Shown here piece by piece: positions 673 through 59,760 of a stretch of 64,000 nucleotides of DNA. The stretch comes from Sphyrna mokarran (lineage: Eukaryota). The stretch's first letter is position 1, and the number at the start of each line of letters is the position of its first letter. A program made the position numbers and the translations under genes. A model generated the notes under the pieces. It did not search any database. It saw nothing but the letters and a program-made list of their open reading frames with translations, and was not told the DNA's origin. The stretch covers positions 102,734,001-102,798,000 of the forward strand of contig JAGIQG010000009.1 in the NCBI GenBank assembly GCA_024679065.1, in the 5' to 3' direction.

Positions 673-849
673 TAAAGGGGAAGTTTCATGGCATTTCTCT
701 ATTAATGCTTGTGACTTATGCCAAGTATAGTTTAAAAAAAGATCAAACAGGCCAGTCCAATAAACAAGGTGAGGTGGAGCGAGGGAGAAGAGATTTGACT
801 AATTGATTCGTAATTCCACCTGCCTTTCAAAGGGAATTAGATTATTTTT

Positions 850-1185
850 AAAAAATTCTTCATGGGGCATGGCCATCGCTGGCTGGCTAGCATTTATTGC
901 CCATCCTCGTTGCCCTTAGAGGGCATTTGAAAGTCAACCACACTGATTTGGCTCTGGAGTAACAGGTAGGTCAGACCAGATGAGAATGGAAGATTTTCTT
1001 CCCTAAAGGACATTAGTGAACCAAATGGGTTTTTCGATAATCAGCAATGCTTTCATGATCGTCAGTAATTCCAAATATTTTTATTGAATTCAAATTCCAC
1101 CATCTGCTGAGGCAGGATTTGAACGCAAGTTCCCAGGATATTAAGTGAGTTTTTGGCGAAAATATTACTGAGCCATTGCCTACCC
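850..1185 (-). mobile_element. tRNA-derived Deu-domain-type SINE (SacSINE1-like)
   Basis: Shares the cactaatgtcctttagggaag...cctacctg...ctccagagcc block with copies at about 52255-52585 (+), 54310-54620 (-), 58440-58745 (-) and 61730-62020 (+). Family name from recognition, not a search. Confidence 0.6.
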
Positions 1186-1255
1186 ATTAACCAAAGGGAG
1201 AGAATTTTCAGGGGTTATGGGTGGATGGCATTGGGCATTGCTCTGGCAGAGAGAA

Positions 1256-2397
1256 CCATTCCCTATGGACAAGCCCTCCATATACATAGAATTTGCTCAG
1301 ATGAGGAGGATCGTGACAGAAACCTCCAGACACTGAAGGATGCCCTCGTGAGAACAGGATATGGCGCTCGACTCATCGATCGACAGTTCCGATGTGCCAC
1401 AGCGATAAACCGCACTGACCTCCTCAGAAGACGAACACAGGACACGGTGGACAGAGTACCCTTTGTTGTCCAGTACTTCCCCGGAGCGGAGAAGCTACGA
1501 CATCTTCTCCGGAGTCTTCAACATGTCATTGATGACGATGAACATCTCGCTAGGGCCATCCCCACCCCCCCACTTCTTGCTTTCAGACAACCGCACAACC
1601 TCAAACAGATCATTGTTCGCAGCAAACTACCCAACCTTCAGGAGAACAGTGACCACAATACCACACAACCCTGCCACAGCAACATCTGCAAGACATGCCG
1701 GATCATAGACATGGACGACATCATCAAATGTGAGGATAACATTTACCAGGTACACGGTACATACTCTTGCAACTCGGCCAATGTTGTCTACCTAATATGT
1801 TGCAAGAAAGGATGTCCCGAAGCATGGTACATTGGGGAGACCATGCAGACACTACGACAGCGGATGAATGAGCATCGCTCAACAATCACCAGGCAAAACA
1901 GTTCCCTTCCTGTGGGCGAACACTTCAGCAGTCATGGGCATTCGGCCTCTGACCTGCGGGTAAATGTTCTTCAAGGGGGCCTTCGTGACACACGACAGCG
2001 CAGAGTTGCTGAGCAGAGACTGATAGCCAAGTTCCGCACACATGAGGACGGTCTTAATAGGGATCTTGGCTTCATGACACACTATCTGTAACCCCCGTAA
2101 CTTGCCTGGGTTAGCAAAAAACCTCACTTACTGTGCTGTCTGGAGAAAATACACAATTCTCTAACCAATGCTCAGGATTCCCTTCACACACATTGTTAGC
2201 CACTTTAACACTTGAATAGCAGGTTAGATGTAAGGATTCGCATTCTAATCAGCAATCTGTGACTGTCTGTGTTGATATGTGTGCTATTGCAGACCAGAAC
2301 ACTGCATTTGCCTGACGAAGACAGAGTGTCGAAAGCTCGCAAATTTACTATCAAATAAATCGGTTGGATTTAAAATTGGTGTTGCTAGATTCTTACT
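1256..2397 (+). mobile_element. Penelope-like retroelement, 5'-truncated (RT thumb + GIY-YIG endonuclease + pLTR/3' end)
   Basis: IPYGQALHIHRICS thumb motif, CxxC linker, VVYLICC...WYIGET...RQRMNEH...GLN GIY-YIG domain, open to the stop at 2091; followed by a hammerhead-bearing terminus. Confidence 0.92.
2306..2344 (+). ncRNA. Minimal type I hammerhead ribozyme (Penelope-associated, dimer type)
   Basis: ATTTGC-CTGACGA-A-GACA(GAG)TGTC-GAAA-GC-TC-GCAAAT: 6-bp stem I, complete CUGANGA and GAAA core, 4-bp stem II, palindromic AGCU in place of stem III, predicted cleavage after 2338. Confidence 0.8.
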
Positions 2398-2634
2398 GAG
2401 AGAACCAGCCCAGAGACGATGGGCGGAATGGCCTACTTCTGCGCTGTGACTATTCTGTGATGTAATTTTCTCTCTGACCTTCAGTTATTGATTTAATATA
2501 AAATATTGAAGGTCATCCTAATTCAATTCTGGTCAGCTTGTTTTTTAGTTCCAGCTCCGATGAAGGACCAGCATCCCGAAAGAAGACCATTCTGTACCTC
2601 TCCGCATTTCCAGTCCCTCCTGCTGAACTCTGTC

Positions 2635-3280
2635 TCCACCCCCGGCCCCGCCTCCGACCCCGCCCACTACTCCAACCTCGAGCGAAAATCATTGCTTAAA
2701 CTGCCAGCCCCGCCCCTCCATGCTGACGGATATCTGCCTGCACCAATCGGTTCGCCTGTCAGTCCCGCGCGATGACCCACCCTCTCTCTGTATCTCAGCC
2801 AATCGGTGACGCAGTTGCGACCGTTCGCCCGGCCCGTGACAAGACTCTCCTGTGACTGACGGCCCTGCCGACCTATCAGATATCATGACGGGCTGTCACT
2901 CCCGCGCGACATCCCGTCCACTCTCTGCATGTCAGCCAATCCGGCGGCGCACACCCGCCGTGTCCTTCTGATCTGTTCTTCTGCCCCGCCCCCTCATTGT
3001 AACTGACACCCCTGTTCGCCTATCAGATACCTCGATCGTCTGTCGGTCCGCTCACGCCCGGCCAATCCGGCGGCGCAACCGTGTGCCATCTTCCTCACGC
3101 TCTGTCCCTCTGATCCAGCTCACACGTCACGCCCTCGTCTTGATTGACGACTTTTTTAGCCTATCAGCTATCGACATGGACTGGGCGGTATCCCGCTGAT
3201 GAGCCACGCGTTCCATTTCTCTGATTCGCTCCCAGTTCGTGCCTGTCGCCCTGACTCTGAAAGCTGTGTTTGCAGAGGCA
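2635..3280. promoter_or_regulatory. CpG island with reiterated CCAAT and GC boxes (about 135-bp unit x4)
   Basis: CpG-dense in a CpG-depleted background; CCAAT at 2743, 2799, 2936, 3062; CCTATCAG at 2872, 3019, 3160; several CCCGCC boxes. Confidence 0.65.
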
Positions 3281-8260: not shown

Positions 8261-8830
8261 TGTCTCCTAAAGCTTCCTGCTACATTTGACGTTTGAAGCG
8301 AGCAAGCCAGAAGGCGGGTTTGAGTCCGCCTTGCCTGCTCAAGCACGTTGACGCTGTAGCTTTAAGGAAGATAAGTCCTACCCTTCTGTTGCTGTACTAT
8401 AATCGCTGAGTAGAAATGTCTACGGTAATCGAATTGGGAGAGGAAATGGGGAGTGGGAGGGGATTGCTCGGTTATTGCTTCACATTCCCGAATGAACCGG
8501 GAGAGGAGAAGGGCGAGGGGGAGGTTTGGAGATGGCAGCGGCTGTTATTTTGGATCAATTTCAAACCTCTCTCTCCGCTTTCACCGCCGCGAAGGTCTAT
8601 CCGGCCGAGATGTTTTACCTCATCCTCCTGCTGGGAATCAGCTTAATCCACACTGAAGGTAAAGAACTGAATTTGGAGAAAGTGTGTATGTTATTTTTAG
8701 TGACGGAGAGCGGTGGATTCCGGGCGGTGACCGTTGTTTTAACGAAAAAAGAAGGGTTTGAAAATGTGAACAAAATGGCGGTTGGCCGGCCGCCAACGGT
8801 TTTGTAGCGTGCCTTTCTTGTTTCATTTCT
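8250..8830 (+). promoter_or_regulatory. CpG-rich promoter region around leader exon 1
   Basis: Local CpG enrichment; YY1-type AAAATGGCGG at about 8772, just inside the intron. Confidence 0.55.
8610..8658 (+). CDS. Signal-peptide (leader) exon L1 of the IgSF receptor: MFYLILLLGISLIHTE-g
   Basis: gccgagATG Kozak context, hydrophobic 16-codon leader, phase-1 donor AAG|GTAAAG compatible with the V exon at 24701. Confidence 0.65.
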
Positions 8831-9504
8831 AAATCGTACTTCATACATACATCCGTGAAATCATTGGAGACGTTTTTTTTCCCCTGTGTGATGGCCCTTT
8901 TGCAATGATATTCAGGTCCTTTTAACATTCGTCAAGCGACCGTAAAATATAGAAGTAGTTTTAGGCCATTCTCCCCATCGAGTCTATTCTGATCATGGCT
9001 GCTAAGTTCCTTAACCTGCATTCTCCCCGTAACCTTTTATCCCATTGCCAATCAACAACCCTCTGTCTTAACTATAGGTAAAACTCCCGCCCACCTGACT
9101 AAAGGACAGGATGTCCCGAAAGCTTGAAGCGTTTGCTACAAATAAACCTCTTTGGAGTTTAAACTGGTGTGGTGGGACTTTGTGTTTTACCTCAGTCCAA
9201 CGCCAGCATCTCCATGCCTTTAACTGTAAGGGGCATGGCGGTTAGCGCTGCTGCCTTATAGCGCCAAGGATCTGGGTTTAATCCCGACCTTGGGTCATTG
9301 TTTGTGTGGGATCTGCACATTCTCCCCGTGTCTGTGTGGGTTTCCTCCCACTATCCAAAAGATGTACTGGTTAGGGTGCATTGACCATACTAAATTCTCC
9401 CCCAGTATACCTAAACAGGTGCCAGAGTGTGTCAACTAGGGGATTTTCACAGTAATTTTGTTGCAGTGTTAATATAAGCTGACATGTGACACTAATAAAT
9501 ATAC

Positions 9505-11090
9505 TTTTAAATCAAGGAACCATAAGATGTAGGAGCAAAATTAAGTCATTCGCTCTATTGAGTTTGCTCCACCATTCAGTCATGGCTGATATCTTTCTCA
9601 TCTCCATTCTCCTGCCTTTTTCCCCATAACTCCTGATTCCTCCTATTAATCAGGAACCTATTTATCTTTGTCTTAAAGACAATCAATGACCTGCCTCCAT
9701 AGCCTCCTGCAACAAAGAGTTCCATAAATTCACCACTCTCTGAACAAATAACAAAACAGCACGGGAAACAGGCCTTTTGGCCCAACGAGCCTGCGCCGCC
9801 ACCCCAATGTTCCCACCTCTACCCGCGATCCCTGTCCATGTTTATAGATCTATGGATTAAAAACCAACTTTACTTGGCAGTGCATTCCATACCCCCACCA
9901 CCCTCTGTGTGAAAAAACTCCCTATAGCATCCAAATTATACCTTACCCCTCTCACCCTAAGCCCGTGACCCCTCGTGCTATTCGAGTCCATCCTAGGAAA
10001 AAGCTTAACCCTGTTTACTCTATCTATACCCCTCATAATCTTGTACACCTCTATTAGATCTCCTCTAAGTCTACGTCTTTTTAAGGAAAACAGTCCCAAT
10101 TTGCCTAACCTCTCCTCGTAACTCAGACCTTCCATACCAGGCAGCATCCTGGTAAACCTCCTCTGCACTCTCTCCAGAGTCTCCACGTCCTTCCGGTAGT
10201 AGGGCGACCAGAACTGGAAGCAGTATTCCAAATGAGGTCTAACCAACGTTTTATACAACTGCAACATTAAAGGCCAGCTCTTGTACTCTATACCCCTTCC
10301 TATAAAGGCTAACATACTATATGCTTTCTTCACAACCTTCGCCACTTGCTCTGCCACCTTCAAGAGACTTGTTCACCTGCACCCCCAGGTCCCTCTGCGT
10401 TTCTATACTCTTAATAGGTCTACCCTTTATCATATACTTCCCCACTACATTCTTTCTCCCGAAATGCATCACCTCACATTTATCAAGATTGAATTCCATC
10501 TGCCATCTGTCTGCCCAAGCTACCAGTCTATCTATGTCCTGCTGCATCGCCTGACAGTGCTCCTCACTATCTGCAAGTCCAGCCATCTTTGTATCGTCTG
10601 CAGAAATTCCTTCTCATCTATGTTTTAAAGGATTGTCCCTTTTAACCTGAGGTTGTGCCCTAGTTCTAATTTTTTCTACTAGTGGAAACATCCTCTCCAT
10701 GTCCACTGTATCCAGGCCTTGCAGTATTCAGTAAGTTTCAATAAGATTCCCCCTCGTCCTTCTAATTCTGCGTACAGATCCAGAGTCCTCAACTGTTCCT
10801 CATATAAGCTGTCCATTCCATGGATGAACCTCCTCTGGACCATTTCCAAGGCCAGCATATCCTTTCTTAGATACAGGGCCCAAAACTGCTCATAGTACTC
10901 CAAAAGGGGTCTGACCAGAGCCTCATACAGCCTCAAAAGTCCATCCCTATTCTTGTATTCTAGCTCTCTCAACATGAATGCTAACATTGCATTTGCCTTC
11001 TGAATTGCTGATTGAACCTGTACCTTAACCTTCAGAGAAGACTCCTAAATCCCTTTGTGCTTCTGATTTCCTAAGCATTTTTCTATTTAG
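9505..11090 (-). mobile_element. Old CR1 3' fragment with a younger CR1 (about 9742-10603) nested inside
   Basis: Two overlapping sets of RT C-terminal ORFs (LVRPHLEYC...ERVQRRFTRM; WQMEFNLDKCEVMHFG); the young copy's tail interrupts the older element. Confidence 0.85.
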
Positions 11091-11096
11091 TCTACG

Positions 11097-11612
11097 TGTG
11101 CAGTTCTGGTCGCTTCACTATAGGAAGGATGTGGAAGCTATTGAAAGAGTGCAGAGGAGATTTACAAGGATGTTGCCTGGATTGGGAGGCATGCCTTATG
11201 AAGTTAGGTTGAGGGAGCTGGGACTCTTCTTCCTGGAGAGACAAAGGTTGAGAGGCTACCTGATAGAGGTTTATAAAATGTTAAGAGGAGTAGATAGGGT
11301 GGATTCTCAGAGGCTATTTCCCTGGGCTGAAATGGTCGCTACGAGAGGACACAGATTTAAGGTGCAGGGAAGCAAATACAGAGAAGATGTTAGGCGTTAA
11401 GTTTTTCACTCAGAGGGTGGTGCGTGAGTGGAATCGACTGCCGTTGGTGGTGGTAGAGGCAAACTCGCTGGGGTCTTTTAAAAGACTTCTGGATGAGTAT
11501 ATGGGATCTAATGGGATTGGGGGTTATAGATAGGTCTATGGCTTGGTAGGTATAGATGTGATCGGTGCAACTTATGGGCCAAAGGGCCTGTTTGTGCTGT
11601 AGTGTTCTATGC
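11097..11612 (+). mobile_element. CR1 LINE 3' fragment
   Basis: QFWSLHYRKDVEAIERVQRRFTRMLPG...TRGH, followed by the gggccaaagggcctgtttgtgctgt tail. Confidence 0.9.
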
Positions 11613-12894
11613 ATTCGATTTATTATTGATGCATGTATTAAGATACAGCAAAAAGTATTGTTTCTTGCAAGCTGTTACATACAACATACTGGTCATAGAG
11701 TACATAGGGGAGAAAGAAAGGAAAGGGTGCAGAATGTAGTGTTGCAGTTACGAATAAGCTGATCTTTCTCTTCAGTTCAATGTGTGATAGGATCATTCAA
11801 GTCTGATGACAGCAGGGAAGAAACAGTTCCCGAGTCGGTTATGTGTCTTCAGACTTCTGTATCTTTTCTTGACGGAAGGTGGAAGAGAGTATGTCCGGAG
11901 TGCATGGGGTCCTTGATTATACCAGTTGCTTCCCTGAGGCATTGGGAAGTGTATATATTAGCAGAAGTGCATATTGGCACGTAATCCTAGACTTTGGAAT
12001 GTATCAGTCTACAACATTTGGTTAAGGACAACTCCTGATGACTGTTTGCCTTGACTTTCAAGTTTAACTGATTTAAATTTTGACTTTTTTCTCCCAATTT
12101 TATTGTCATCTTCGTAGGTCCTTCTGCTGCTGCACCCCTTTAAGAATTGTAGCCTTTATATTGACAATTCATGTTCTTCCTTCCAAAATTAATCACCTCA
12201 AACTTTTCTGCATTTTATTTGCCACTAATCTGTCCCCTTGCTTATGCTTTTTTGAAGTTCTACACTGCCCTCTTCACAATTTACAATGCATCCAAATTTT
12301 GTATCATCTTTGAAATTGTTCTCTGCATACCAAGATCTAGTTCATGAATCATTTGAATTTAAATCAATGGTTATTGCATAGGAGCCAAGTGTTTGACTTC
12401 ATTTTTTCAAAAATAACTTAAGTGCAAAGACAACAAAATGTCTCTTTTGGATATTGGAAGAATAAGTTGCTTCAGGTGTCGATTTAGCTCAGTTGGCTAT
12501 CCAGCTGATTAGTGGTGCAGATTAATGCTGGCAGCATGGGTTTAATTTGCTTACTGGTTATTCATGAAGGCTTGCCTTTTCAACCTTGTCCTTCGTCTAA
12601 GGTATGGTGACTGTCACGTTAGATCATCACCAGTCACCTCTCCCCCTCAAAGGGGAGAGCAACTTATTGTCGTGTGGGACATTGGCGACTTTACATTTTT
12701 AAAAAATCCTTCCCTGAGTTTGCACATGCGCTTGAACTCCTGCCAACGCAAACATGGACTTGCAGTGTGAGTGCACACATGCGGAAATCCACCCTTGTAA
12801 ATAGTGATAGTTTATTCAATTGCCCAGGCAGTCACAGAATGGCAATAAATTAGAGGTTTTTTTATTAATTAATTAATTATTACTATTATTATTA

Positions 12895-13795
12895 AGCAAC
12901 ACAGCACGGGAAACAGGCCCTTCGGCCCAACGAGCCCGCGCCGCCGTCATACCAAATAGTAGCAAATACATTATCCTATTTTAATATTCCTATATAATAA
13001 TATATATATTATTCCTAATATGGAAAATTTTCACCAGAGGGACAATTTGTTACCCAATCAGCCTAAGAGCGAATTTTTGGGTTGTGGGAGGAAACCGGAG
13101 TGCCCGGAGAAAACCCACGCAACCACGGGGAGAACACGCAAACTCCCGCAAACACCGGCCCAATTCCAAGTGTCTGCACAGCCACATCGATAGTCTCTGA
13201 GCTGTCATGGTGCCCTTCAGATGGTCCACATAAAGCACCCATTTACGACATGAGGTACCAGGCAACCTGTGAATCAACATCCAAGAGCTGTACCCGCACC
13301 ACCTGCCGAATGCGTGCTCAAATTATGGACCGAATTACCTGTGGAAAAAAGCCGTATTTAAACAGTCCTAATATATCCCTCTATCTGCATACTGCTCATG
13401 TGGCTGTCCAAGAGACCCTTAAACAGCCCCAGCGTGCCTGCTCCCACCACCTTACTCGGCAGTGCATTCCACACCCCCACTACCCTTTGTGTGAAAAACT
13501 GCCCTCTAATATTCGTCCTATACAATAGCCCCCCTCACCCTATGGCCATGACCTCTCGTCCTATCCATTTCTAAAGGTGGAAAAAGTTTACCTCCATTTA
13601 CTCTATCTATACCCCTTATAATCTTATACACCTCTATGATATCCCCTCTAAGCCGACGTCTTTCAAGGGAAAACAACCCCAGTCTATCTAATCGTTCCTC
13701 ATAGGACAGTCCTTCCATACCAGGCAGCATCCTGGTAAACCTCCTCTGCACTCTCTCCAAGGACTCCACATCCTTCCGATAGTACGGAGACCAGT
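12895..13795 (-). mobile_element. Young CR1 3' fragment with V-SINE-containing 3' UTR
   Basis: WSPYYRKDVESLERVQRRFTRM...; near-identical to 56690-57580 in the opposite orientation. Confidence 0.9.
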
Positions 13796-16079
13796 TGTAG
13801 GAATAGGATGGGAGAGAGGGTCTGGATAAGATACACTCATCAGAGTTTGTGCATACTCGATGGGCCAAATGGCCTCTTTTGCATTGTCAGATTCTGTGAT
13901 TCTATTGAGTTAGGGGTCGTGGCCCCTCTTCCTCCTAAAGAAATATCCTAACGTAGACTTACACTAACATTGCAATGGAATTACTGTGAAAATTCCCTAG
14001 TCGTCACACGTGTGCCTTATCGGATACACGAGAGAATTTAGCACGGCCAATGTGTGTAACTCAAATGTCTTACAGACAGTGATGCAAGCTGGGAATTGAA
14101 CCCAGGTCCTCGGTGCTGTGCTAACCACTGAAGGCACAATACTGCAAATGTTGCAATCTGAAACTAAAGGAGAAAATGCTGGAGAAACTCAGCAGGTCTG
14201 ACAGACCGACTGGGTTTCTCCAACTATATCTGCTTCTGCCATGACCTCTTCGTTTGCTCTGGGTTTGTACTTTACCAATATGAAACTATTGGAACCAGCC
14301 ACTTCCATTTTTTGTAATGTGGAGGAAATTTCTAATGTTGTCAGAGCAAGGACTGCTTCTTCCAGTGTTGTCAGACTAAGGGCCGTTCTGTGAATGGCAC
14401 TGACTCAATCTGCAGAACGCAGCTGGGCAAATAACATTTTTGATTCAATTTATTATTGTCACATGTACCAAAATACAGTGAGAAGTATTATTATGCATGC
14501 CAGCCGTGCAAATTATACGATACATAGCTCGCAAAGAGTTAGCACACGCTGGCGCTGTCTTGAAAATGGACTGTGATCCACAGTGAGATAGACAGATATG
14601 GGGAGAAAGCAAAAGAAAGAGAAATGCTGGTGAGAGATAGATATGGGGATGTGTGACACCAGCCTGGAGTGCATTGGAGTTGTCAAGTTCAGATGTAACA
14701 TAGACACAAATGAGGGTCTCCGCCTTCTATTTATTCATATGCTCAGAAGGGGCGACCCATGACCATGATGCAGTTTCACACACATGGTTTGATTTGATTT
14801 ATTATTGTCACATTATTAGTATACAGTGAAAAGTATTGTTTCTTGAGTGCCATACAGACAAAGCATATTGTTCATGGAGAAGGTACAGATAGTAGCATTA
14901 GTTATAGCAAGCGGGTAAAGAAAGAAACCATATTTCATGAACTAGAAGATAAAATATGGAGGTTCATTAAAAGTCTGATGGCAGCAGGAAAGAAGCTGTT
15001 CTTGAGTCAATTGGTGTGACTTCAGACTTTTGTATCTTTTTCTGAGCAGAAGAAAGTATGTCTGGGGTGTGGGGGGTCCTCGATTATGCTGGCTGCTTTT
15101 CTGAGGCAGTGTGTAGTGCTGATAGAGTCTGTAGATAGGCGGCTGATGGACTGGGCCGTGTTCATTAGGTTTCATCTTGAGGTGCTTCAATGCAATAAAT
15201 TAGTTAATTTTACTACTTGTGGTGTTTGAATCCGTATTTTGGTGTCATGATTGGGGAATTTTGCAATCCCCATAATTGTTTGAATCACTCCTCCCAATTA
15301 CTCTGCAATACAATTAAAGAAACACTAGATATTTCAAAATGGATATTGCAAATGGTGCTGGTTTAAGTTTTTTGTGTAAATCATATTACACTTGGGTTAC
15401 TTACAGGTAATTGTGACGTGTAATATTCATTGCATGTGTCCAATGTGAGTCATGCAGCCAGAGCAGGTTTATACCATTCTGCTCCTCGACCATTCCTGGC
15501 TGCCTCCATTGCACTTCTGCAGAAGCTGCTCAAACTTCAGTGTGTCCTTCAGCTAAGACCTGCTCTTTGGAATGTGAAAGTCTGCAACATTTGGTCAGGG
15601 ACAACTCCTGATAACCTGTTTATCTTGACTTTCATATTTAGCAGATTAGAGTGCTTTTTTCCCTCGTGGATTTGCTATCACGTATTTACTCAGCACGTCA
15701 ACTAGGCTGATCACATAGGAGATATCTCAGTGGGAGGAGGGATGGGCTGATAAATGCAAAATTGGAAATATTTAAATGATTTCAAAGTACTATGACCAGA
15801 GTTCAACCTTTGACTAACCCACAGCAGCTGTGCATCTTTATTTTTCTTAATGAATGGGATTGCCTTGATTGGTTCATCTTTTAAGTGTCATTTTGTTATT
15901 AGGCTCTGATTGTCCAATTGGGCACTGCAGTGATGTGTACATGCCAAGGTTTAGAGCACTGGGCTTTTGCTTTGGCTTTGGCTTGTGTTGGAGCTGATTT
16001 GAAGGAGGAAATGGACAGATCAAGTTGTAAAACCTTCTGCAACTATTCTGCCATCTTCAATGATTTACACATATATAAA

Positions 16080-16985
16080 GATGCTGCCGTTGGACTGGGG
16101 TAAACACAGTAAGAAGTCTCTTAACACCAGGTAAAGTCCAACAGGTTTATTTGATAGCAAAATCCACTCGCTTTCAGAATGCTGCTCCTTTGTCAGGTAA
16201 TTGGGAGTTCTGTTCATGAATATAAAATACAAACTCAATTTACAAAATAATGGTTGGAATGTGAGTCTTTATAGGTAATTAAGTCTCAAAGGTACAGACA
16301 ATGTGAGTAGAGAGGGCGTTAAGCACAGGTTAAAGAACATATATTGTCTCCAGACAGGACAGTTAAATGAGATTTTGCAAGCCCAGGCAATTCATGGGGG
16401 TAACAGGTAATGTGACATGAACCCAAGATCCCTATTTAGGCTGTCCTTATCTGCAGAACTTGGCTGTCAGTTTTTGCTCAGCGACTCTGCGCTGTCATGT
16501 TGTGAAGCCACCTTGGAGAACGCTTACCCGAAGATCAGAGGCCCATGACTACTGAAGTGTTCCCCAACAGGAGGAGAATGCACTTGCCTGGTGATTATAA
16601 AGTAATGTTCATTCATTTGTCATAGCGCCTGCATGGTCTCCCAATGTACCATGTCTCAGAACATCCTTTCCTGCAGTGTACCAGGTAAACAATATTGGCT
16701 AAGTTGCAAGAATATGTACCATGTACCTGGTGATGGTGTTCTTGTGTATGATGATGGCATCCATTTCAATGATCTGGCACATCTTGCAGAGGTTGCTTGG
16801 CAGGGTCATGTGGTGTCATGGCCACTGTTCTCCTAAAAGCTGGGTAGTTTGCTGCGGCCAATAGTCTGTTTAAGATTGTGCGGTTGTTTGAAGGCAGGAA
16901 GTGGGGGGTTGTGGGGATAGCCTTGGCGAGATAATTCATCTTCATCAGTGACGTGATGAAGGTTCTGGAGAAGATGTCATAGCTT
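16080..16985 (-). mobile_element. Penelope-like fragment
   Basis: Reverse complement of a degenerate GIY-YIG region and pLTR end, homologous to 1256-2397. Confidence 0.8.
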
Positions 16986-17479
16986 CTCTATTTAATTGAG
17001 ATTAAATTAATTGAGAAAAATCCAGATTTTTATGGATCTGTTCTTATTGAAATGAAATAACTAATATACAACTGTGAAATGTTTTATTCTGACTTGTTTG
17101 CAATTTATTGACATGTAGACTGGCAATATTTTGAGTTTTTTTAGTGAATAAAGTATATTTTTGGGAAAAAATGCTGGAGAAATTCAGCAGATCTGACAGA
17201 CTGACTGGGTTTTCCTACATTTCTGTTTTTGGCATGACCTCTTCATTTGCTGTGGGTTTGTTCTTTAGTAATATGAAGCTGTTGGAACCAGTTTTGTTTT
17301 GTAGCAGGACGGCCGTTGTATTTCTAATGTCAGTAAGAGTCTGGCAAACTGAGTTTACCCCAGTCCAACGCCGGCGTCTCTACGTCATTATTTCTCATAG
17401 TCAGAGCAAGGACGGCCTTGTAGGTAGTACTTAAACCTTTCAAGATTTGACTAGCTGCCGACGACAAGCGTCTGTATTG

Positions 17480-17700
17480 CTGATCGGATTGGCACCAGGA
17501 GCTGATAACTCGCTCGCTTTTGTGTTTTAGCGGCTGAGATTCTCATTCCTTCTAAAAGAGAGGCGGAGGGGCGATTTTGGTTTTTAAGGATTGGCTGGAG
17601 GATTTTAAGGAGGCACGCTGCCTCAGAAACGTCACCTAATGTGACGTCACTCCCACAGTCTTATATATATGGGCATTTGGGTTCAAACTCAGGAATGTTC
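17480..17700 (+). promoter_or_regulatory. Promoter of leader exon L2: inverted CCAAT boxes, GC box, full CRE, TATA
   Basis: ATTGG at about 17488 and 17590, GAGGCGGAGGGG at about 17560, TGACGTCA at 17642-17649, TATATATA at about 17662, 130 bp upstream of the ATG. Confidence 0.65.
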
Positions 17701-17799
17701 TTGATTGACTCGCTCAGTGTGTGTCGAAGCCCAGTGAGAGGTTGCTCTGTCGGCAGTGCTGCAGCTCGGCGGTTGGACTGACATCGGGAGTCGGCTGAG

Positions 17800-17857
17800 A
17801 TGGCTTTTACCGTGATGTTGCTGCTCAGCCTTTCTGCTGGGCTCATCGGAGGAGAAG
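17800..17857 (+). CDS. Signal-peptide (leader) exon L2: MAFTVMLLLSLSAGLIGGE-g
   Basis: Strong Kozak gctgagATGG, hydrophobic leader, phase-1 donor AAG|GTAAGG; joins in frame to 24701. Confidence 0.8.
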
Positions 17858-18732
17858 GTAAGGGATTGAGTGAGGTGGGGGGAGAGGGGATTTTTTTAAA
17901 AAAATGGCAGAGCAGTGTAAGTGAAAAGTCAACTGCCCTGACCTGAGGTTCACTCTGGCCGCAGTCCCTCCATTACTTCTTATGAATGGGCCGGGCCGGG
18001 CCTGAGCCCGCGCTGATTGCGTTCATGTTTACCTCAGATACCGATTGTCCAGCCGGACTGTGTGGAGGCCGCCACTTCGCCCAGGTTTCATTTCAGATTC
18101 ACAGCTGAGATATTAACCTTTTTGTTGATTTCACATAAAGTTTGGATGCGCGAGACCTGGCTCTCTTTCCGTCGCTCGCTTTTGGCGGCGCCGCTCTCCT
18201 GGGCAGCCATTCTTCTCGCTTTTTATAAATGTCCCAACGTTGGGTCAAATTAACACTGCAATGGAGTTACTGTGACAATCCTCTAGTCGCCATACTACGG
18301 CCCCCATTCGACAAAATCTGAGGGAGAATTTAGCATCAAACTCTCACGTCTTTTGGACTGTGGGTGGAAACTGGAGCACTTGGAAGAAATCCACTCAAGC
18401 GCGCACGAGAGAGAATGTGCAAACTCCTTAGAGTGTGCCGCAAGCCGGAAAGCCTAGCTGTTCAGCTTTGAGGGAGGTGCAATGCCTACTCCAAGCAGCT
18501 TGGATCATGCAGATCAACCCCACGACAGGAGGTGAGAGTCCTGTCTTGAACCTGGAATGCCTAACTTGCTGAGACTTTGAATTGGATTTTGATTCGAATA
18601 TTTTTTTTTTAAAAAAGGAGCTTGGCTCTTTGTCGGTCTGCAGCGAGTCTGAGGGTCGCTGCGATCGAATCGGGAGTGGGGTATTGTCTGTATCAGGGCT
18701 GCAGAATTACGAATAGACCGCTATTCACCGTC

Positions 18733-18791
18733 ATGTTGTTCCTCGGCTGCTTTTCCCTCAGTCTCTCCTTTTATATTGATCGGTGTGGGAG
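18733..18791 (+). pseudogene. Leader exon L3 with a 1-nt frameshift (MLFLGCFSLSLSF/ILIGVG-g)
   Basis: Paralogous to L2 (ttcaccgtcATGttg vs tttaccgtgATGttg), donor GAG|GTAAGG; T4 at 18769-18772 versus T3 in L4 makes it 59 nt (phase 2). Confidence 0.65.
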
Positions 18792-21700
18792 GTAAGGATG
18801 TCAATTAGTGAAATGATTTCCTTTTAAATTCTTGGGAAACTGTCGGAGGAAATGTTTAAATGTGGTGGAAACTCATTCAGTTTGTTTTGAGCGAGTGAGT
18901 GTGTGTTGTCGCAGCGGAGTTAGCCCTGCTCCCGGTTTTCCTTTCTCCAGTAAGTCGCATCCCAGTGTTTCCCAAACTGTGGGTCAAACAAGGGACGAGG
19001 TTTTGAGTCTCTCTCTCCTCCCTCCACCCCGGGGCTGGGGTCCAGCCTTTCCCTGCTGTAGCAGAGAGAGCTCGATAGGAGGTTTTGTAAACATCGTGTG
19101 TAAAGTCCCGCTTTGTACTGAATTGTCGAAGGTTAATTTCCACCGGCTTTATGGCTCCACTTTTCTGTGTAGTAGCTGCATGATTTCCTCATTGTTTCTT
19201 GGCCTTTTGGTTATACTGTTTTATGACGAGGACTATGTCTATGACTGTAATTTGAGTGTCGCTAGAAGTCATGTTTGTAAGGGCGAAGTACAATGCACAG
19301 TCGCTGGGGGAGCGCTGCGGTCGAGTGTCACTCATCACATCATATTTGAGAAAGAACAAGTTACAAAACCCAGCAACCATACCAGGCAACATCCTGGTAA
19401 ACCTTCTCTGCACTCTCTTCAAAGCTTCCATGTCCTTCTGTAGTGTGGCAACCAGAACTGGATGCAGCACTCCAAATGTGGTCTAACCAACGTTTTATAC
19501 AGCTGTAACATCAGATGCCAATTTTTATACTCTATATGCCGTAGCTCTTTAACCTGTGCTTAATTCTCTTTCCGTTCACGTTGTCTTATCTTCAAACTGG
19601 ATGATCAAACCCATCATCACAATTACCAACTGGTGTTCTATCTGGATTTTGACAAAACACATCATTTTGCTCGCTGATCTTCCAATTGGACCATAATACA
19701 GTGCAAATGCTTCCAGCTCACTCAATGGAATTTGATTACAAGGAACAATTATGGAGCCTTACTCTGAAGAATTTGGTCAGAACTTTTTTTCCTAAAAGTT
19801 GGATGAAGACATGCCCTGTGCAGCCAAATAAAAGCATGAGCCAGCGCCTCATTATACAATTCTCTGTTTAGAAACTTGTGTTTACAAGGGCAGCAGAGTG
19901 GCACACAGGTTGGCACGGTTGTCTCACAGCAGTTCGATTCTTGGCTTGGGTCACTGTCTGTGTGGAGTCTGCATATTCTTGCTTATCGATAAAGACTCCC
20001 ATTCCAACCATTATCTTGTAAATTGAATTTGTCTTTATATGCCCTGTTTGTGAACAGAACTCCCATTTACCTGACAAAGGGGCAGCCCTTCAAAAGCTAG
20101 TGGTTTTTGTTACAAGTAAACCTGTTGGACTTTAATCTGGTGTTGAGACTTCTCACTGTGTTTATCGTAGTTCAATACCACATCATTGGCTAAAATGGGG
20201 AGCAGAGAACTCACCAAATGATGTGGAGAACTCAGCTGAAATATAACATCAATCTTTTTCTCAAAGTATTTTAATACACAGATTTTCATACACTATCTTA
20301 TGCAAACTTTAATACCTATTTTCAGGATCTTGCAAAGTTGCCTTTTTGTGTTGGGGGTCCTATTAACTTTTTAATTTGAAATTATTGAACAGAAGGAGAC
20401 CATTCAGCATGGCGTATATGCACTGACTCACTGATAGAACATTTTGCTTAGGCCCTATCCCCGTAACCCCACATATTTACTCCGTAATTCCCCTAACCTG
20501 CACATCTTGTTAAAGTTTATTTATCAAAGTCACAAGTAGGTTTACACTAACATTGCAATGAAGTTACTGTGAAAACCCCCTGGTCGCCATACTCTGGCAC
20601 CTGTTCAGGTACACTGAGGGAGAGTTTAGCATGGCCAGTGCACCTAACTAGCACATCCTTCAGAATGTGGAAGGAAACCGGAGCACCCAGAGGAAACCCA
20701 TGTGACGTAGGGAAAATGTATAAACTCCACACAAACAGTGGTCCGAAGCCAGAATTGAACCCTGGTGCTGTGAGGCAACAGTGTTAATCACTGTGCCACT
20801 GTGCTCTCGGAGTAATTTAGAACATGAGGTTACTGTATGAGGTCACAGATATAGGTTGATAGATTTAACTGAAATAAGGAGATACTACTACTCAGAGGGT
20901 GATGAATCTGTGGAACCTGCTGCCCCATAGTATAGTGGAATCTGATTTGTTGAATGGTTTCATGAAGGAGATGGATATATTTCTAATTTTAAAAAGGGGA
21001 AGAGGGATTTGGGAGATGGATTTGAGATCAGCCTTGAACATTATAGTTTGAGGTATAGCTGGGCTATGTTTCTGTGCAGTGATGGGAGAGTGTGTGGATA
21101 CGACCCAGCTCAGAGAAAACTAGCATGCAAATAGAGCAGATAATAGAGAAAGTGAATGGAATGTTGGCATTTATAGCTAATAGAATAAAATATAGCAGTA
21201 AGTAAGTATTGTTGTAACTATATAAGGTATTAGTGAGGCTGCATCTGAAGTATTGTGCAGAGTTTTGGCCCCCTTATTTGAGGAAAATGCATTGAAGGCA
21301 ATTCAGTGGTGGTTCAATAGAGATTTTCTAGAGATGGGGGGGTTTATCATTTGAAGAGTTTGGGTGCAGGGTCTGTATGGCTGAACGTCCCTCACAAACA
21401 GCATCTTTGTAAGGGCGAATTACATCAGGCACAACAACTATCTTGATGTGGATAGTGTATTATGCATGCATGGCAGTCTCTAAACCAGGCACAATGAATG
21501 ACATGAAATCTTTCTTTCAAATTCATTTAAGGTACAGACTTTTATACATTTGCTATACTATGCAAACTTTGATATTTATGCTCAGGATCTTGTAATGCTG
21601 CTTTATTTGCTGCCAAAGCAGTATGCTGGCACAGTGGGTTGCACTACTACCTCTTAGCATCAGGGACTTGGGTTCAATTCTAGCCCCGGATCATGGTCTG

Positions 21701-22006
21701 CCTGGAATTTGCACATTCTCTCTATGTCCATGTGGGTTTCCTCCAGGTATTTGGTTTCTCCCCATGCTCCAAATATGTCTGGGCAGGTGGATTGGCCATA
21801 CTAAATAGCCCTTAGTGTCAGGAGGCCCAGCAAGGTGAATGTGGGATTGTGAGGATAGAGAGTGGATTAGGTTGTTGTAGTCATCCAGCTTGATGGCTGA
21901 ACGGCTTCCTTCTACCGTATAGCGATTCTATTACTGTTGAATCAGAGCTTGGGGGTGGGGGGGTTGGTGGTGGCGAGGGATTTGTGATAAACCAGAAATC
22001 ATTGTA

Positions 22007-22315
22007 ATGTTGTTTCTCAATTGCTTTTTGGGCAGCGCTGTGGTGAGCACTGCTGCTTCACCACACCAAGGACCCGGGTTCGATTCCAGCCTTGGGTGAC
22101 TCTGTCTGGAGTTTGTTACGTTTTTCTCATAACTCCATGGGTTCCCTCCCATAGTCCAAAAGACGTGCTGGTTAGGTGTATTGGCTATGCCAAATTTTCC
22201 CTCAGTGTACCTGAACAGGGGATTTTCACACTAACTTCATAGCTAAGTCTACTTGTGGCACTAATAAACAAACTTTTAAACTTCAGCCTCACCTTTATAC
22301 TGATTGGTGTGGGAG
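22007..22315 (+). pseudogene. Leader exon L4 split by a SINE (MLFLNCF..[SINE about 22030-22281]..FSLTFILIGVG-g)
   Basis: Both halves align to L3; donor GAG|GTAAGG and about 120 bp of following intron match 18792-18920. Confidence 0.75.
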
Positions 22316-22637
22316 GTAAGGATGTCAATTGGAGGAAAGGTTTTTTCCTAGGAAACTGTCGTAGGAAATGTTTAAATGTGGCTGGAACTCATTGAGTTTG
22401 TTTTGAGTGAGTGAGTTGTCACAGCAGAGTTATAAATCCTACAGAGTACTAGGAGACTCTGGCCAATTTAGTCTGCACTGAATCTCTGATAGAACATCTC
22501 CTGCAAGCCCTATTCCCTCAACTCCACATATTTACCCTGCTAATCCCCCTAACCTATGCATCTTGGGACACTTGAGGGGTAATTTAGTATGGGCAATCCA
22601 CCTAACCTGCACATCATTGAACTGTGGGAGAGAACCC

Positions 22638-23110
22638 TGTAAGAAGTCTCAACGCCAAGTTAAAAGTCCAACAGATTTATTTGGTAGCAAAAACCACTAG
22701 CTTTCAGAGTGCTGTTCCTTCATCAGGCGAGTGAGATTTCAGTTCACAAACAGAGCATACGAAGACACAAACTCAATTTACAAAATAACAGCTGGAATAT
22801 GAGTCCCCACAGGCAATGTGTGGAGAGATGGTTAAGCACAGGTTAAAGAGATGTATTGTCTCTAGCCAGGACAGTTAGTGAGTTTTTGCAAGCCCAGGCA
22901 CGTTGTGGGGGTTACAGAAGTGTGACATGAACCCAAGATCCCAGTTGAAGCTGTCTTCATGTGTGTGGAACTTGGCTATCAGTCTCTGCTCAGCTACTCC
23001 TCTGTTGTTGTGTGTCATGAAGTCTGTCTTGGATAATGCTTACCCACTAAAGATCAGAGGCCAAATACCCATGACTGCTGAAGTGTTCCCCGACAGGAAG
23101 AGAACACTCC
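22638..23110 (-). mobile_element. Penelope-like 3' fragment with hammerhead remnant
   Basis: Reverse complement reads cctgatgaaggaacagcactctgaaagctagtg and a GIY-YIG C-terminal remnant. A similar copy lies at about 23842-24275 (-). Confidence 0.8.
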
Positions 23111-24700
23111 TGAAAACTCTTGCAGACACAGAACTTGCAAATGCTACACGGATAATCATCCTAGGTTGAATTGAACCCTGGCCCTGGCACTGAGGCAGTG
23201 GTGCTAATCCCTGTGCTACCTTGCTGCCTTCTGACAGAAAGTTAAAGAAACAGTTTTAATTATTAGGTGTTCATGTTTGATCAGATTACAATTTGTACAT
23301 GCCTTGGGGATGGGTTCTCTGTACTTAGGTCCTGACTTCATTCCAGAACATGTTGTGCAAAAAGGGAAAACTAAGTCTGAGGAAGCAGAGAAGCTGCAGT
23401 CAGAGGCACCAAGATGGTGGGTTCAGGGGAAAGTCAATGGTCAGAATTATTTTTATCCATTGGCAAAGAGCAGTCACAGTTAAGAGGAATTCAGAAATTG
23501 TAATGGCTCAGAAACCCAGCCCACCTTTGTGTGACTCTGTTTGGAATAGTAAACTTGGCATGCATTAAAAATTAGCAAGGGTAAATCAAACAACTTTCAG
23601 ATTGCAGTAGATTCTGTTCTGGTTTTACTAGCTGAGCACATCTGACAGCGTCAGTTGAGAGACAACGTATGAGCAGCATGGTGGTTAGCACTGCTTCCTT
23701 GTAGTGCTAGGGAGCTGGGTTTGATTGCCAGCTTTTGGATCGCTGTCCATAGAGTCTGCAGTTCTCCCCTTCTATGTGGATTTCTTTCAGGCACTCTGAT
23801 TTCCTCCTGCAGTCCAGAAAATGTTCTGGTTAAGGTGCATTGTAAGAAGTCTCACAACAGGTTAAAGTCTAACAGGTTTATTTGGTAGTACAAGCTTTCA
23901 GGGTGCTGCTCTTTCATCAGGTGATTCAGAGTTCTGTTCACAAACTGGACGTATAAAGACAAACTCAATTTACAAAATAATGATTGGAATGTGAGTCTTT
24001 ATAGGTAATCAAGTCTTAAAGGTACAGATAATGTGAGTGGAGGGAAGTTAAGCACATGTTAAAGCAATGTGTATTTTCTCCAGCCAGGACAGTTAGTGAA
24101 GTTTGGCAAGCCGTGGGGGTTACAGATAATGTAACATGAACCCAAAGTCCTGCATGAGGCTGTCCTTGTGTGCGGAACTTGGCTATCAGTTTCTGCTTAG
24201 TGATTGTGCGTTGTTGTGAAGGCCACTTTGGAGAACACTTACCAAAGGTCAGAGGCTGAATGCCAGTGACCGCTGAATTGTGCTGAAATCTACAATTAAT
24301 AAATGTGATTGAAGCAGCGTGGGGAATAGTTAATACAGAAAAGAACTGCAAGTAAGTGCAGAAAATTAATAAAATTATAGAATGGTAAAATTACTAAAGT
24401 TTAAATGTGAAGTAGTTCAGGTTTGGAGGGGGGTGGGAGTCACTTAATACCTGGAAGATGTCAGTTTAGATAGAGTGGAGGAACACTGGCACCTTGCTGT
24501 GCAAGTATAGCATTCATTAAGATTTGTGCCATGTGTTAGTGAAGCTTGAAACAGTAGGCTTTATTTTCAGAATTACAGATTGTTGAATCTCTGTGGAACC
24601 TCTACCCTCAGATATCCAGATTCTGAGCTCTGTAAGTCAATTATTTGTTTTATTTGACATTTCATTGCTAGTGTTTAATTTGCTTTCTTTTGCCAATTAG

Positions 24701-25006
24701 TTGGGCAGGAAGAAGTACTTACTGCTGTTGGTTCATCACCTTCACTGCACCTTGAAATTGATGAAGATCTGAATAGCATTGAAGTATTGTGGGAGTTCAC
24801 AGGCAATAATGGCAATCTTGTTACTATTTTGGATTATGTACCAAATTTGCCCAAAGAGGAGCCGAATGAACAGTTCAAATTTCGTTTACGTTATAATGTT
24901 TCCACTGGCACTCTGATGATAATGAATGTAACATCTAGAGACGAAGGAATTTATAAAGTCACAGTAGGAAGAGAATTGAAGGAAAAGAGAATTCTGAAAG
25001 TTATTG
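24701..25006 (+). CDS. IgSF gene 1, V-set domain exon (CD2/SLAM/CD58-like, no canonical cysteines)
   Basis: Acceptor tttcttttgccaattag|, donor G|GTAAGT, phase 1-1, open. VGQEEVLTAVGSSPSLHLE...EVLWEF...RLRYNVSTGTLMIMNVTSRDEGIYKVTV: C-strand W and DxGxY present, no Cys. Confidence 0.9.
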
Positions 25007-29954: not shown

Positions 29955-30233
29955 AGCCACTTTCTGAAGCTTCAATCAATGATACCTGTGTGAATAATAC
30001 CATTAAACTGACCTGTCAAGTGGCAGTGGGGAAAGTAAGCTCCATTCTGTGGTGGAAGGATAGCAGAATAATAACAAGCGGTCAACACTATCAGTTGGTG
30101 CGAAACAACAGCATGTTGATTATTTTTGAAGCCAACAAATTAGGCTTTGGGATCTACACTTGCACCATGGAGAACCCTGTTAGTAAGAAGAACTGTTCAT
30201 TGTCTGTTAATTGGAACACTCTTTCTGTTTGCG
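29955..30233 (+). CDS. IgSF gene 1, C2-set domain exon
   Basis: Acceptor cttctctcttgcag|, donor G|GTGAGT, phase 1-1. IKLTCQV...ILWWKD...NNSMLII...GIYTCTMENPVS with the canonical Cys-Trp-Cys and the family-typical NPVS motif. Confidence 0.92.
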
Positions 30234-35872: not shown

Positions 35873-35962
35873 GTGAAGAGTGTGAGCCATCAGAATCGAC
35901 AAACAACGTTAAAATCATAGTTTTTACTGTAATGGTGCCATTCTTTGCACTGCTAATCATAT
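35873..35962 (+). CDS. IgSF gene 1, stalk + transmembrane exon
   Basis: ttttag| acceptor, T|GTAAGT donor, phase 1-1; GEECEPSESTNNVKIIVFTVMVPFFALLII. Confidence 0.82.
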
Positions 35963-37020: not shown

Positions 37021-37052
37021 GTTGGATGTGCAAAAAAAAAATGGAAAACTAG
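37021..37052 (+). CDS. IgSF gene 1, TM end and short cytoplasmic tail CWMCKKKMEN* (exon runs to 37095)
   Basis: caacag| acceptor, CAT|GTAAGT donor at 37096; completes the hydrophobic helix and adds a KKK stop-transfer cluster. Confidence 0.65.
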
Positions 37053-37717
37053 ATTCAGCCATCCTGTCCTATTTGAAAACACCATAAAATGTCATGTAAG
37101 TATTTTGATCAAATGCAAATGACAAATTAGATATACATGTGTTTCTCTGAAACTTTCTATAAGTGAACATTCTTATAAGTGCAACAACTAGAACTGCTCC
37201 ACTATCTGTCAGAATGCATCCATGTCATAGTTTGTTACCAGAGATAGATAGCTAAATGGGGATTATTTTACTATTAAGTCACGTTTACTATCTAAAAATA
37301 AAATTAAATAAAACCCAATTCCCTCCATGTAGGCAGCCTAGAGGATTAAATATTCAACACTAGAAAGCTGAAACTTGTAACCAATTTGTCTTTATCAAAT
37401 TGCAATAAATGATCTTTTATGGGCCTAAACTTTACTAAGTGGGGCAATTCTGAAACTGCTGCATGTATAGAGATAAAATGCAATATTGTTGTGTAAGGGC
37501 ATTTGTTAGATGGGTTAATGACATGGTTTACAAAAATATCTTGGCCATTAGCTTTTTCTGAAGGGGGAGGGGAACCTTAAACCTAATGTACAAGGAACAA
37601 TCAAATACATATCACCAACTGTTTGGAACTGTGCTTTTCATCATTTTTGTATCCAAAAAAATTGGGTTTTTCTGCCATTTGCAGACATTTTAATCCTCTT
37701 TCTCTCCTTTTCTGTAG

Positions 37718-38110
37718 GAGCCAAAATCCAGAAGTGCTGATCGGGGAGTACAACTTAAAAGAAAAACTGTAACGGTGATTTTAACTATCTGTGAGCATGG
37801 TACTACCAAAACAGTTTTGTTTTGTGAGCAGAACGTGGGCCAAATTTTTTTAGCTTCTTTTGATCTTTGTACATTTTAATTTGCAAGTGCATATAGGTGT
37901 TGAAACAGAGTGGTATACTGGCTGGGCCGTTTTGCACAATTTTTATGGCTGGGCCGTTTTGCACAATTTTTATGGCTGGGCCGTTTTGCACAATTTTTAT
38001 GGCTGGGCCGTTTTGCACAATTTTTATGGCTGGGCCGTTTTGCACATTTATACACACTTTAACTTGTACATAAGATGTATTGTTTAATTTATAGATTCTA
38101 AATAAATCTC
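37718..38110 (+). other. Probable last exon / 3' UTR of gene 1
   Basis: Strong acceptor cctctttctctccttttctgtag| and AATAAA at about 38101; coding status depends on upstream frame. Confidence 0.5.
37920..38046 (+). repeat. Perfect 27-bp minisatellite x4.7
   Basis: GGCTGGGCCGTTTTGCACAATTTTTAT repeated head to tail with no spacers. Confidence 0.95.
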
Positions 38111-48739: not shown

Positions 48740-48960
48740 ACATTTTCATTTCCGTATTGGTCAATTTTAGGGCGGGCTTTAGCGAAGGTGGAGGGGGGGC
48801 AAGGTATTTCGAACAAGGTTGTAGAAGCGTTCTGCTGAAGATCCCGCTTGGTATTTGACTTCAGCGGGAATGTTGATCTTGATGGAGCATCGATTCACCC
48901 TTTGGGATCTGTCCTCCACCTCTTTTCTCCTACCTGCCCCCCTCCGCCTCTGGCTGCTCG
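48740..48960 (+). promoter_or_regulatory. Candidate promoter and degenerate leader exon of gene 2
   Basis: ATTGG and GGGCGGG boxes at about 48756-48776, local CpG enrichment; ATG 48882 reads MEHRFTLWDLSSTSFLLPAPLRLWLL-g to a weak phase-1 donor TCG|GTGAAG. Confidence 0.35.
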
Positions 48961-51880: not shown

Positions 51881-52168
51881 TTGGAAGGAAGGAAGCAATT
51901 GGAGTCGTTGGTTCTTCAGTTTTACTGGATCCTGAGTACGGGGCTGACCTTGGATGTTCAACGGCAGCAATGGAAATCCTGTAATTATTCTGGATTATGT
52001 GCCAAATTATCTGAGAGAGGAATCAAATGAACACTTCAGATCACGTCTATTTTTTAATACATCCAATGGGGTCCCTGATGTTGAACAATTTAAAAGCCAA
52101 GGACCAAAGGGTTTATACCATCACTATAGGCGGAGGCTGGCAATGGAGTGCAGATTTGAAAACTGTTT
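51881..52168 (+). pseudogene. IgSF gene 2, V-set exon, frameshifted
   Basis: Paralog of 24701-25006 (VVGSSVLLDPE...WMFNGSNGNPVIILDYVPNY...NEHFRSRL...KDQRVYTITI); about 19-nt deletion before the C-strand Trp and an extra G near 52070; entry frame hits TAA. Confidence 0.85.
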
Positions 52169-59259: not shown

Positions 59260-59760
59260 CTTGGCTTTAGTTATTGGAGTATTGTGTGCAGTTCTGATCA
59301 CCACACTACCAGAAGGATATCGATGCCTTGGGAGGGCGCATTGAAGGTCCACCAGGATGTTACCTGGTCTGGGGGGTTTTAGGTATGAGGATAATTTCAG
59401 ATTGTTTTCACACGAAAGACAGAAGCTGAAGGGTCTTCAAAACAACGAGACACTTAGATAGTGGGGCTAGTCAGAGGCTTTTTCCCAGGGTGAAAGGGTC
59501 TGCTGCAAGAGGGTACAGGTTTAAGGTGAGAGGTGGTAAGTTTAGGGGAGACATGTGGGGAAAATTTTTCACACAGCGAGTGGTGGGTGCGAGGAACGCA
59601 CTGCCAATGGAAGTGGTAAAAGCAGCCACGTTAGCAATGTTCAAGCTCCTGATAGATCCTGATACAATGGAAGGCGAATAGAGAGATAGAAACTGCTTAT
59701 TGCTGCAGGCTTAATGGGCTGAAGAGTTTGTTCCTGTGGTATATTGTACTTTGTTGTGTT
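59260..59760 (+). mobile_element. Old CR1 3' fragment
   Basis: LEYCVQF...RGYRFKVRGGKFRGDMWGKFFTQRVVG and CR1 tail. Confidence 0.75.

Follow-up and report, generated by a model that had tools for sequence, protein, structure and literature searches.

Two intact and two broken signal-peptide first exons upstream of a single CD2/SLAM-like receptor gene of Sphyrna mokarran: candidate alternative leaders of one mature protein

A 64,000-nucleotide stretch of the genome of Sphyrna mokarran (assembly GCA_024679065.1, contig JAGIQG010000009.1, positions 102,734,001 to 102,798,000 of the forward strand), referred to here as the window, contains a gene, G5, for an immunoglobulin (Ig) receptor with one V-set domain, one C2-type domain and one transmembrane (TM) segment, preceded by four short signal-peptide exons (leaders L1 to L4). 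Two of these, L1 and L2, are intact, and it is probable, judging from the sequence, that they have separate promoters and are spliced alternatively to the same V exon, with the same mature protein as the product. Exon anatomy and phases are shown by the sequence, the donors of the intact leaders are strong, no body exons lie between the leaders, and G5 has orthologues in other sharks. A first-pass annotation of the window had read the array as first exons that provide one body with alternative signal peptides, two of the copies being dead, a reading now supported by the absence of body relics and by the orthologue models. The DNA searched comprised the window (C1548:102734001-102798000) and 38 neighbouring stretches, 444 kb in total; all coordinates are window-based unless given with C1548.

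The four leader exons that the annotation had placed at 8610, 17800, 18733 and 22007 were all confirmed by translation, donors and phases. L1 (8610..8658, plus strand) is an intact 49-nt signal-peptide exon of phase 1, MFYLILLLGISLIHTE, with the donor AAG|GTAAAG; an in-frame ATG upstream, at 8532, would add 26 residues. L2 (17800..17857, plus strand) is also an intact signal-peptide exon of phase 1, 58 nt long, MAFTVMLLLSLSAGLIGGE, with the donor AAG|GTAAGG. Both read openly into the V exon at 24701, as VGQEEV..., i.e., two intact signal-peptide first exons are in phase with one common second exon. L3 (18733..18791, plus strand, 59 nt) is of phase 2 as assembled, out of frame by one base: its T run, near 18769-18772, is one T longer than that of L4, and the frame stops 17 codons into V. 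This one-base break is either a real lesion or an assembly slip. L4 (22007..22315, plus strand) is a copy of L3 split at about 22030-22282 by a short interspersed element (SINE) that brings a stop, and is a dead leader. The earlier statement that all leaders are in phase 1, or can be restored to it, holds as it stands for L1 and L2. The V exon at 24701, taken to be the only one, is so in the leader interval but not in the window, which has a broken V at about 51880-52165.

Concerning the number of leaders, the four or five first counted come down to four, two of them intact. A profile of the four leaders gave 4 more matches in the 444 kb (E 0.22-18), none of which was accepted as a fifth leader; the best, at 15646, is without ATG or donor. 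A simple scan for the succession ATG, hydrophobic stretch and donor gave 15 matches in the same DNA, mostly chance, and a leader-like shape alone was therefore not counted as proof.

The four leaders differ in how closely they resemble one another. L3 and L4 are identical at 130 of 150 aligned bases (87%), with the exon end and the intron start in common (local score 195, 0/300 shuffles). The alignment of L2 with L3 scored 41 (shuffle maximum 40, 0/300 shuffles) and that of L1 with L2 scored 40 (shuffle maximum 39, 0/300 shuffles), while L1/L3 and L1/L4 gave no alignment over the leader. In the codon-by-codon alignment described for L2, L3 and L4, a gap of 5 codons is needed to match L2 with L3. 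A profile of L1 and L2 finds L3 at E 0.051. The motif CGGCYGAGATG, part of the pattern cggcYgagATG...gaag|gtaa that had been noted as common to L1 and L2, occurs at 2 places in the 444 kb with both strands searched, and these are exactly L1 and L2; this supports the link of L1 to L2-L4, which is likely, though weak. L2, L3 and L4 form one family.

The L2 and L3 codons were compared in a hand alignment that omitted the extra T and those 5 codons of L3 that have no counterpart in L2. Of the 17 codons compared, 5 are identical, 7 synonymous and 5 replaced, and third positions hold 10 of the 18 base differences (p 0.043). This excess of synonymous and third-position change suggests that L2 and L3 were both kept coding long after they duplicated. 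L2 and L3 are separated by 843 bp and L3 and L4 by 3.2 kb, far less than the 13 kb of the G5 body; the L1-L2 interval is 9 kb. The ages of the duplications are very different, L3 and L4 being 87% identical and L1 and L2 barely possible to align.

Promoter-like context is present at L1 and L2 only, and not clearly at L3 and L4. L1 lies in a CpG island, the most CpG-rich context among the leaders, with an observed/expected CpG ratio (CpG o/e) of 0.97 (background 99th percentile 0.83). The CpG half of the CpG/YY1 context attributed to L1 is thus correct, but the putative YY1-like motif (8772..8781, plus strand, one of three in 444 kb) lies inside intron 1, after L1. Upstream of L2, a cyclic AMP response element (CRE) palindrome and a TATA-like box (17642..17670, plus strand) make up a candidate L2 promoter; this is the sole CRE-then-TATA pair (within 30 nt) in the 444 kb, in agreement with the context first described, and CpG o/e is 0.68. 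L3, 900 bp behind L2, has no TATA or CRE and a CpG o/e of 0.67; L4 has no TATA or CRE and a CpG o/e of 0.28. The promoters that had been assumed at L3 and L4 were thus not found, nor is the idea supported that a promoter was copied along with each leader, as the flanks do not align and promoter-like context is limited to L1 and L2. Judging from these motif contexts, the two intact leaders would differ in regulation, L1 being of a CpG-island type and L2 of an inducible, CRE/TATA type.

Farther upstream, window positions 674-1258 and 2398-3254 are 83-90% identical to a CCAAT-rich CpG-island promoter located at C1548:110.73 Mb, of which they are a copy. The copy ends before the first donor of its source and points toward L1, 5.3 kb away. 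Its island at 2400-3250 was considered as a fifth promoter of the array and rejected, as it is truncated, was copied from a promoter at a distance of 8 Mb and has no leader; it could conceivably serve as an enhancer.

The closest protein relative of G5 is found in Mustelus asterias (V 76% identical). In a V tree of 42 rows, with no mammalian sequences, G5 groups with three Mustelus paralogues (100/98), then with catsharks, and then with the white and basking sharks (100/97); G4, the paralogue just upstream, is a weakly supported sister of the G5 clade (90/85). All three Mustelus models have an L1-type leader, the Mustelus leader matching L1 with 0/1000 shuffles, and catshark models have leaders of the L3 type (0/1000 shuffles). 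In the basking shark, XP_078422845.1 (X1) and XP_078422846.1 (X2) are RefSeq isoforms of one gene, with an identical 247-aa body and different leaders. The X1 leader matches L3 (0/1000 shuffles) and L2 (2/1000), and the X2 leader is common to basking and white shark. One body lineage thus carries two leader lineages across two shark orders, and because both leader types occur in that one lineage, according to the V tree and the gene models, alternative first exons are backed. Among 88 proteins parsed there were 12 pairs with the same V and a different N-terminus: X1/X2, two cross-species lamniform pairs, five catshark pairs with non-leader starts and four pairs of other paralogues. A longer Mustelus isoform was also sought, and only a catshark protein was found. 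Concerning the literature, no paper describing G5 or its leaders turned up in a search whose coverage leaves out subscription journals, and PMC11372145 held no relevant passage.

Several of the results weigh against alternative first exons. The case is built on sequence and on predicted gene models of relatives, to which the basking shark isoforms also belong. A search of sequencing runs gave three, one of them with the V exon and none on record as RNA, which speaks neither for nor against splicing. The X2 leader has no local match to L1 (306/1000 shuffles) and matches it only by a donor-anchored score (p 0.006), a result that the generic layout of signal peptides may also give. An identical X1 leader is present in a second paralogue of the basking shark, P0040, and the catshark model P0007 has part of an upstream C2 exon at its start, i.e., cross-gene joins occur in such annotations. 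A leader specifically like L2 is absent from the Mustelus and catshark models. Within the array, L1 and L2 are only marginally similar in their DNA and neither is recovered by leave-one-out profiles, and the upstream flanks of the leaders are not above chance in any of the six pairs (33-129 of 300 shuffles reach the score), although their homology, if old, could have been lost. Finally, the repeat DNA of the L1-L2 interval (66%) could have erased a relic.

The explanation that competes best with two working leaders is that a single leader is in use today, most likely L1, and that L2 is a remnant with little or no activity, as are L3 and L4, its frame being still intact by chance. The L1 type of all three Mustelus models, which come from the nearest relatives, speaks for it, as do the 5 codons by which L2 falls short of L3 and of the X1 leader of the basking shark, and the fact that two of the four copies are already broken. 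However, L2 retains its ATG, an open frame, a hydrophobic core, a strong donor, a CpG o/e of 0.68 and the only CRE+TATA pair of the 444 kb, and shows an excess of synonymous change relative to L3. We consider a single working leader unlikely.

It is distinctly unlikely that the extra leaders were left behind by tandem duplications of the whole gene, the bodies having been deleted, and that they were never alternative exons of one gene. Whole-gene duplicates of G5 do exist in Mustelus, catsharks and the basking shark, the decayed paralogues G4 and G6 flank G5, and the L1-L2 interval is 9 kb long with 66% of repeats. Against this, the interval between the leaders was searched with sensitive methods and no body relic appeared. 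As the first-pass annotation had stated, no Ig exon was found between the leaders by tblastn of V and C2 over 8659-24640, or with profiles. When 64 relatives were searched against the same interval, about 60% of which is repeats, the matches at E<=0.05 were to L3 only. Nucleotide profiles of V, C2 and the last membrane exon detected no sense-strand relic in 8659-24640 and gave one antisense match (E 3.9). As a positive, held-out control, the same profiles, built without G6, recovered the broken G6 at E 3e-81, 8e-60 and 1.5e-17, and they also recovered the decayed G4 TM exon and, at -79730, an orphan TM exon. When sliding protein profiles were made from the membrane tail, they failed to find the TM exon of G5 itself, and for this reason the relic test rests on the 64-relative search and the nucleotide profiles, neither of which revealed a further gene body lying between the leaders. 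A fully erased body is possible between L1 and L2, given the repeats; the L2-L3 gap is only 843 bp. The V tree, in which one body lineage has both leader types, also speaks against relics of whole genes.

That not all the leaders work for G5, with L1 or L2 skipping it and splicing to a downstream V or with L1 belonging to another gene, is suggested by the phase-1 acceptance of every V exon and by cross-gene models in relatives (P0007), but it is highly improbable, as leaders of their own are present in G6 (48882) and G7 (113797), the G6 V is broken, G4 lies entirely upstream of L1, and in Mustelus the L1-type leader sits on the G5 orthologue.

With L1 and L2 as alternative first exons of G5, each of their promoters would start its own transcript, the first donor of which would be joined to the acceptor at 24701, leaving the inner leaders without a role as internal exons. 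The signal peptides would then be cleaved at IHT|EVGQE and IGG|EVGQE, giving the same mature start; the (-3,-1) rule of thumb permits the EVGQE start for both, as one of two candidate sites for L1 and one of four for L2. The leaders would have arisen through short tandem duplications of different ages, in the order of an old split of L1 from L2/L3, then L2/L3 and last L3/L4, the youngest; L4 would have been killed by the SINE insertion and L3 by the one-base change, unless this is an assembly slip. A bolder version, which we regard as doubtful, would have three live promoter-leader cassettes, the break of L3 being an assembly slip, as an A10 run in the G5 tail (see below) may be, with different lineages keeping different subsets; the host cluster would be an undescribed CD2/CEACAM-like family embedded in the major histocompatibility complex (MHC), mostly five-pass, with leaders duplicated and homogenised independently of the bodies.

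If two leaders are indeed used, G5 would be a compact case of regulation diversified with the mature receptor unchanged, with the living and the dead steps adjacent. The two-leader state would likely have persisted from the time when the lamniform and carcharhiniform sharks separated, well over 100 million years ago. It would also draw attention to an Ig receptor cluster, as yet unnamed, within the MHC of sharks and bear on the idea that CD2/SLAM-like genes began in a primordial immune complex. The mechanism as such is already known from the IgLON genes, the serial birth and death of leaders being the added twist, and the surrounding cluster of multi-pass receptors in the MHC may merit more attention than the leader array.

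The IgLON genes Lsamp, Ntm and Opcml have twin promoters, 1a and 1b, with alternative signal-peptide first exons, identical processed N-termini and a regulatory purpose, according to the accessible part of PMC5288359. As would be the case in G5, an Ig-superfamily surface protein is combined there with alternative first exons for alternative signal peptides (PMC5288359). IgLON proteins differ in having three C2 domains and a glycosylphosphatidylinositol anchor, in being neural and in having two promoters, and the accessible text mentions no dead extra leaders (PMC5288359). G5, in contrast, is of V+C2+TM structure, belongs to an MHC-linked cluster and has four leaders, two of them broken. With these differences, the IgLON twin-promoter layout is the closest precedent for G5, in place of the clustered protocadherins and UGT1 that the first-pass annotation had named. 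In protocadherin and UGT1 clusters, tandem first exons are spliced to common constant exons, copies are born and die, and the variable exons are whole domains that diversify the protein, in large arrays with homologous promoters. G5 is similar in the tandem first exons on one body and in the birth and loss of copies. However, its leader exons, of 49-59 nt, encode only hydrophobic leaders and no domain of the mature protein, and none of the six pairs of upstream flanks aligns above shuffles. As nothing variable would stay in the protein, G5 is not an array of the protocadherin/UGT1 type. Tandem duplicated exon substitutions, in which homologous duplicated exons are used alternatively (PMC9741552, accessible part), also differ from G5, where the copies occupy the first-exon position and what varies between them would be absent from the mature protein.

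Concerning the body of G5, all its exons are on the plus strand. The V-set exon (24701..25006) is of phase 1, without cysteines (Pfam V-set E 1.2e-7), and is followed by a C2-type exon with five cysteines (29955..30233), a single TM exon (35873..35962), a first cytoplasmic exon (37021..37095) and a last coding exon (37718..37879) encoding EPKSRSAD..., as in the Mustelus orthologue; the first polyA-type hexamer is at 38101. The phases are consistent up to the tail. In the first cytoplasmic exon, an A10 run (37032-37041) leads to an early stop as assembled, which ends the tail after 9 residues, while the Mustelus orthologue runs on to EPKSRSAD. This may be a real truncation or an assembly slip.

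The CD2/SLAM family has an N-terminal V-set domain without the canonical disulfide, a trait present also in CEACAM N domains, and a membrane-proximal C2 domain with two disulfides. G5 agrees with both: its V has no cysteines, four of the five cysteines of its C2 exon fall in the pattern known for that domain, and the fold matches CD48, CD58 and CD2. The basking shark orthologue was modelled with AlphaFold (mean pLDDT 80), and the model had as its top Foldseek matches CEACAM1b (E 8.5e-14), CD48 (1.8e-12), CD58 (2.6e-12) and CD2 (3.2e-12), at 20-24% identity, so placing CEACAM1b and CD48/CD58 about level. G5 has in common with CD2/SLAM proteins (CD48, CD58, CD2, SLAMF6) and CEACAM1 the succession of a V without cysteines and a C2, but it differs from the CD2/SLAM family in the tails of its orthologues, in its location on the MHC scaffold and in that most of its paralogues are multi-pass. 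SLAM receptors have a cytoplasmic immunoreceptor tyrosine-based switch motif (ITSM, TxYxxV/I), which CD48 and CD58 lack. The ITSM pattern, or that of the inhibitory motif (ITIM), was found in none of five orthologue tails, and tyrosine is missing from the tail of G5 whichever way it is read. The pairs CASQ/VANGL and CASQ/NCSTN are markers of the mammalian CD2/CD58 or SLAM neighbourhoods; here, CASQ and VANGL are on C335, CASQ and NCSTN on C446, and the cluster is on C1548 with MHC class I. G5 likely acts like a CD48/CD58-type adhesion or ligand molecule. The CD2/SLAM-like label first given to it is thus good for the fold, family membership not being established.

G5 is one of seven V+C2 Ig genes, G1-G7, within the 444 kb, and owns the leader array at its 5' end. 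G1 (V at -248406; gene -262200 to -248400, minus strand), G2 (V at -116046; gene -123100 to -85900), G3 (V at -50834; gene -66900 to -29800) and G7 (V at 121692; gene 113800 to 137500; leader 113797) are multi-pass paralogues. G4 (V at -8276, extending to about -2300) has intact V and C2 and a broken TM exon; its leader was not found in the 444 kb with the relatives search or the leader profiles, and it is likely a decaying paralogue, sister to the G5 clade. G6 (48882-60167 and 66464, leader at 48882, V at about 51880) has two frameshifts in V and a leader without a good donor, while its C2 and TM look intact; there is also an orthologue-like protein that is intact (P0106), and G6 is likely a pseudogene. 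G1, G2, G3, G6 and G7 have one leader apiece.

The cluster, at 102.5-102.9 Mb of C1548, is about 7 Mb from MHC class I genes, whose exons are on this scaffold at 85.8-95.8 Mb (53/53 matches). A search for MHC class II beta gave no match and was uninformative. In the white shark, the family members LOC121291109, -659 and -660 are on the MHC chromosome 19, between NRM and NOTCH4, and are unlabelled in the accessible part of PMC10751288 supplementary file 1; the same chromosome carries a gene labelled SLAMF (PMC10751288 supplement). A distant V+C2 gene near the end of the scaffold (C1548:113089224-113092853) is, by its position, possibly this gene. Pfam searches of 126 low-repeat open reading frames, chosen from 279, revealed no neighbour genes, only retroelement and zinc-finger matches and one extra, unrelated V-set exon between G1 and G2 (L036:7520-7915, minus strand, about -212300; Pfam E 2.8e-9).

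The multi-pass paralogues G1, G2, G3 and G7 have 4-5 extra membrane exons, i.e., V+C2 and about five TM helices, while G4, G5 and G6 retain the last TM exon alone. Sharks, rays, chimaera and turtles all have relatives of the multi-pass genes, the names of which are uninformative. Neither Pfam nor Atlas gave a match to the membrane part. The architecture resembles that of CD47, and kinship is a candidate explanation; there was no Pfam match to the CD47 membrane part and no usable Atlas match, and CD47 is absent from the Foldseek and VIA-align rows, which Ig domains fill.

Other traces of rearrangement were seen in the cluster. The leaders of G1 (-243859, minus strand) and G2 (-123098, plus strand), inverted and 120 kb apart, have in common a 192-bp patch of 99.5% identity within unrelated flanks. 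Pairs with the same leader and a different body are also found in Scyliorhinus torazame models and in P0027/P0080, and recurrent gene conversion is their likely origin. Between G1 and G2 (-198000 to -127000) there are several duplications of 2.5-6.5 kb, 96-99% identical and mostly inverted, which represent either recent rearrangement or an assembly artefact. The orphan copy of the last TM exon (-79730 to -79609) lies between G2 and G3; together with V-C2-C2 and V-V-C2 models, it indicates that duplication at the exon level is common in this family.

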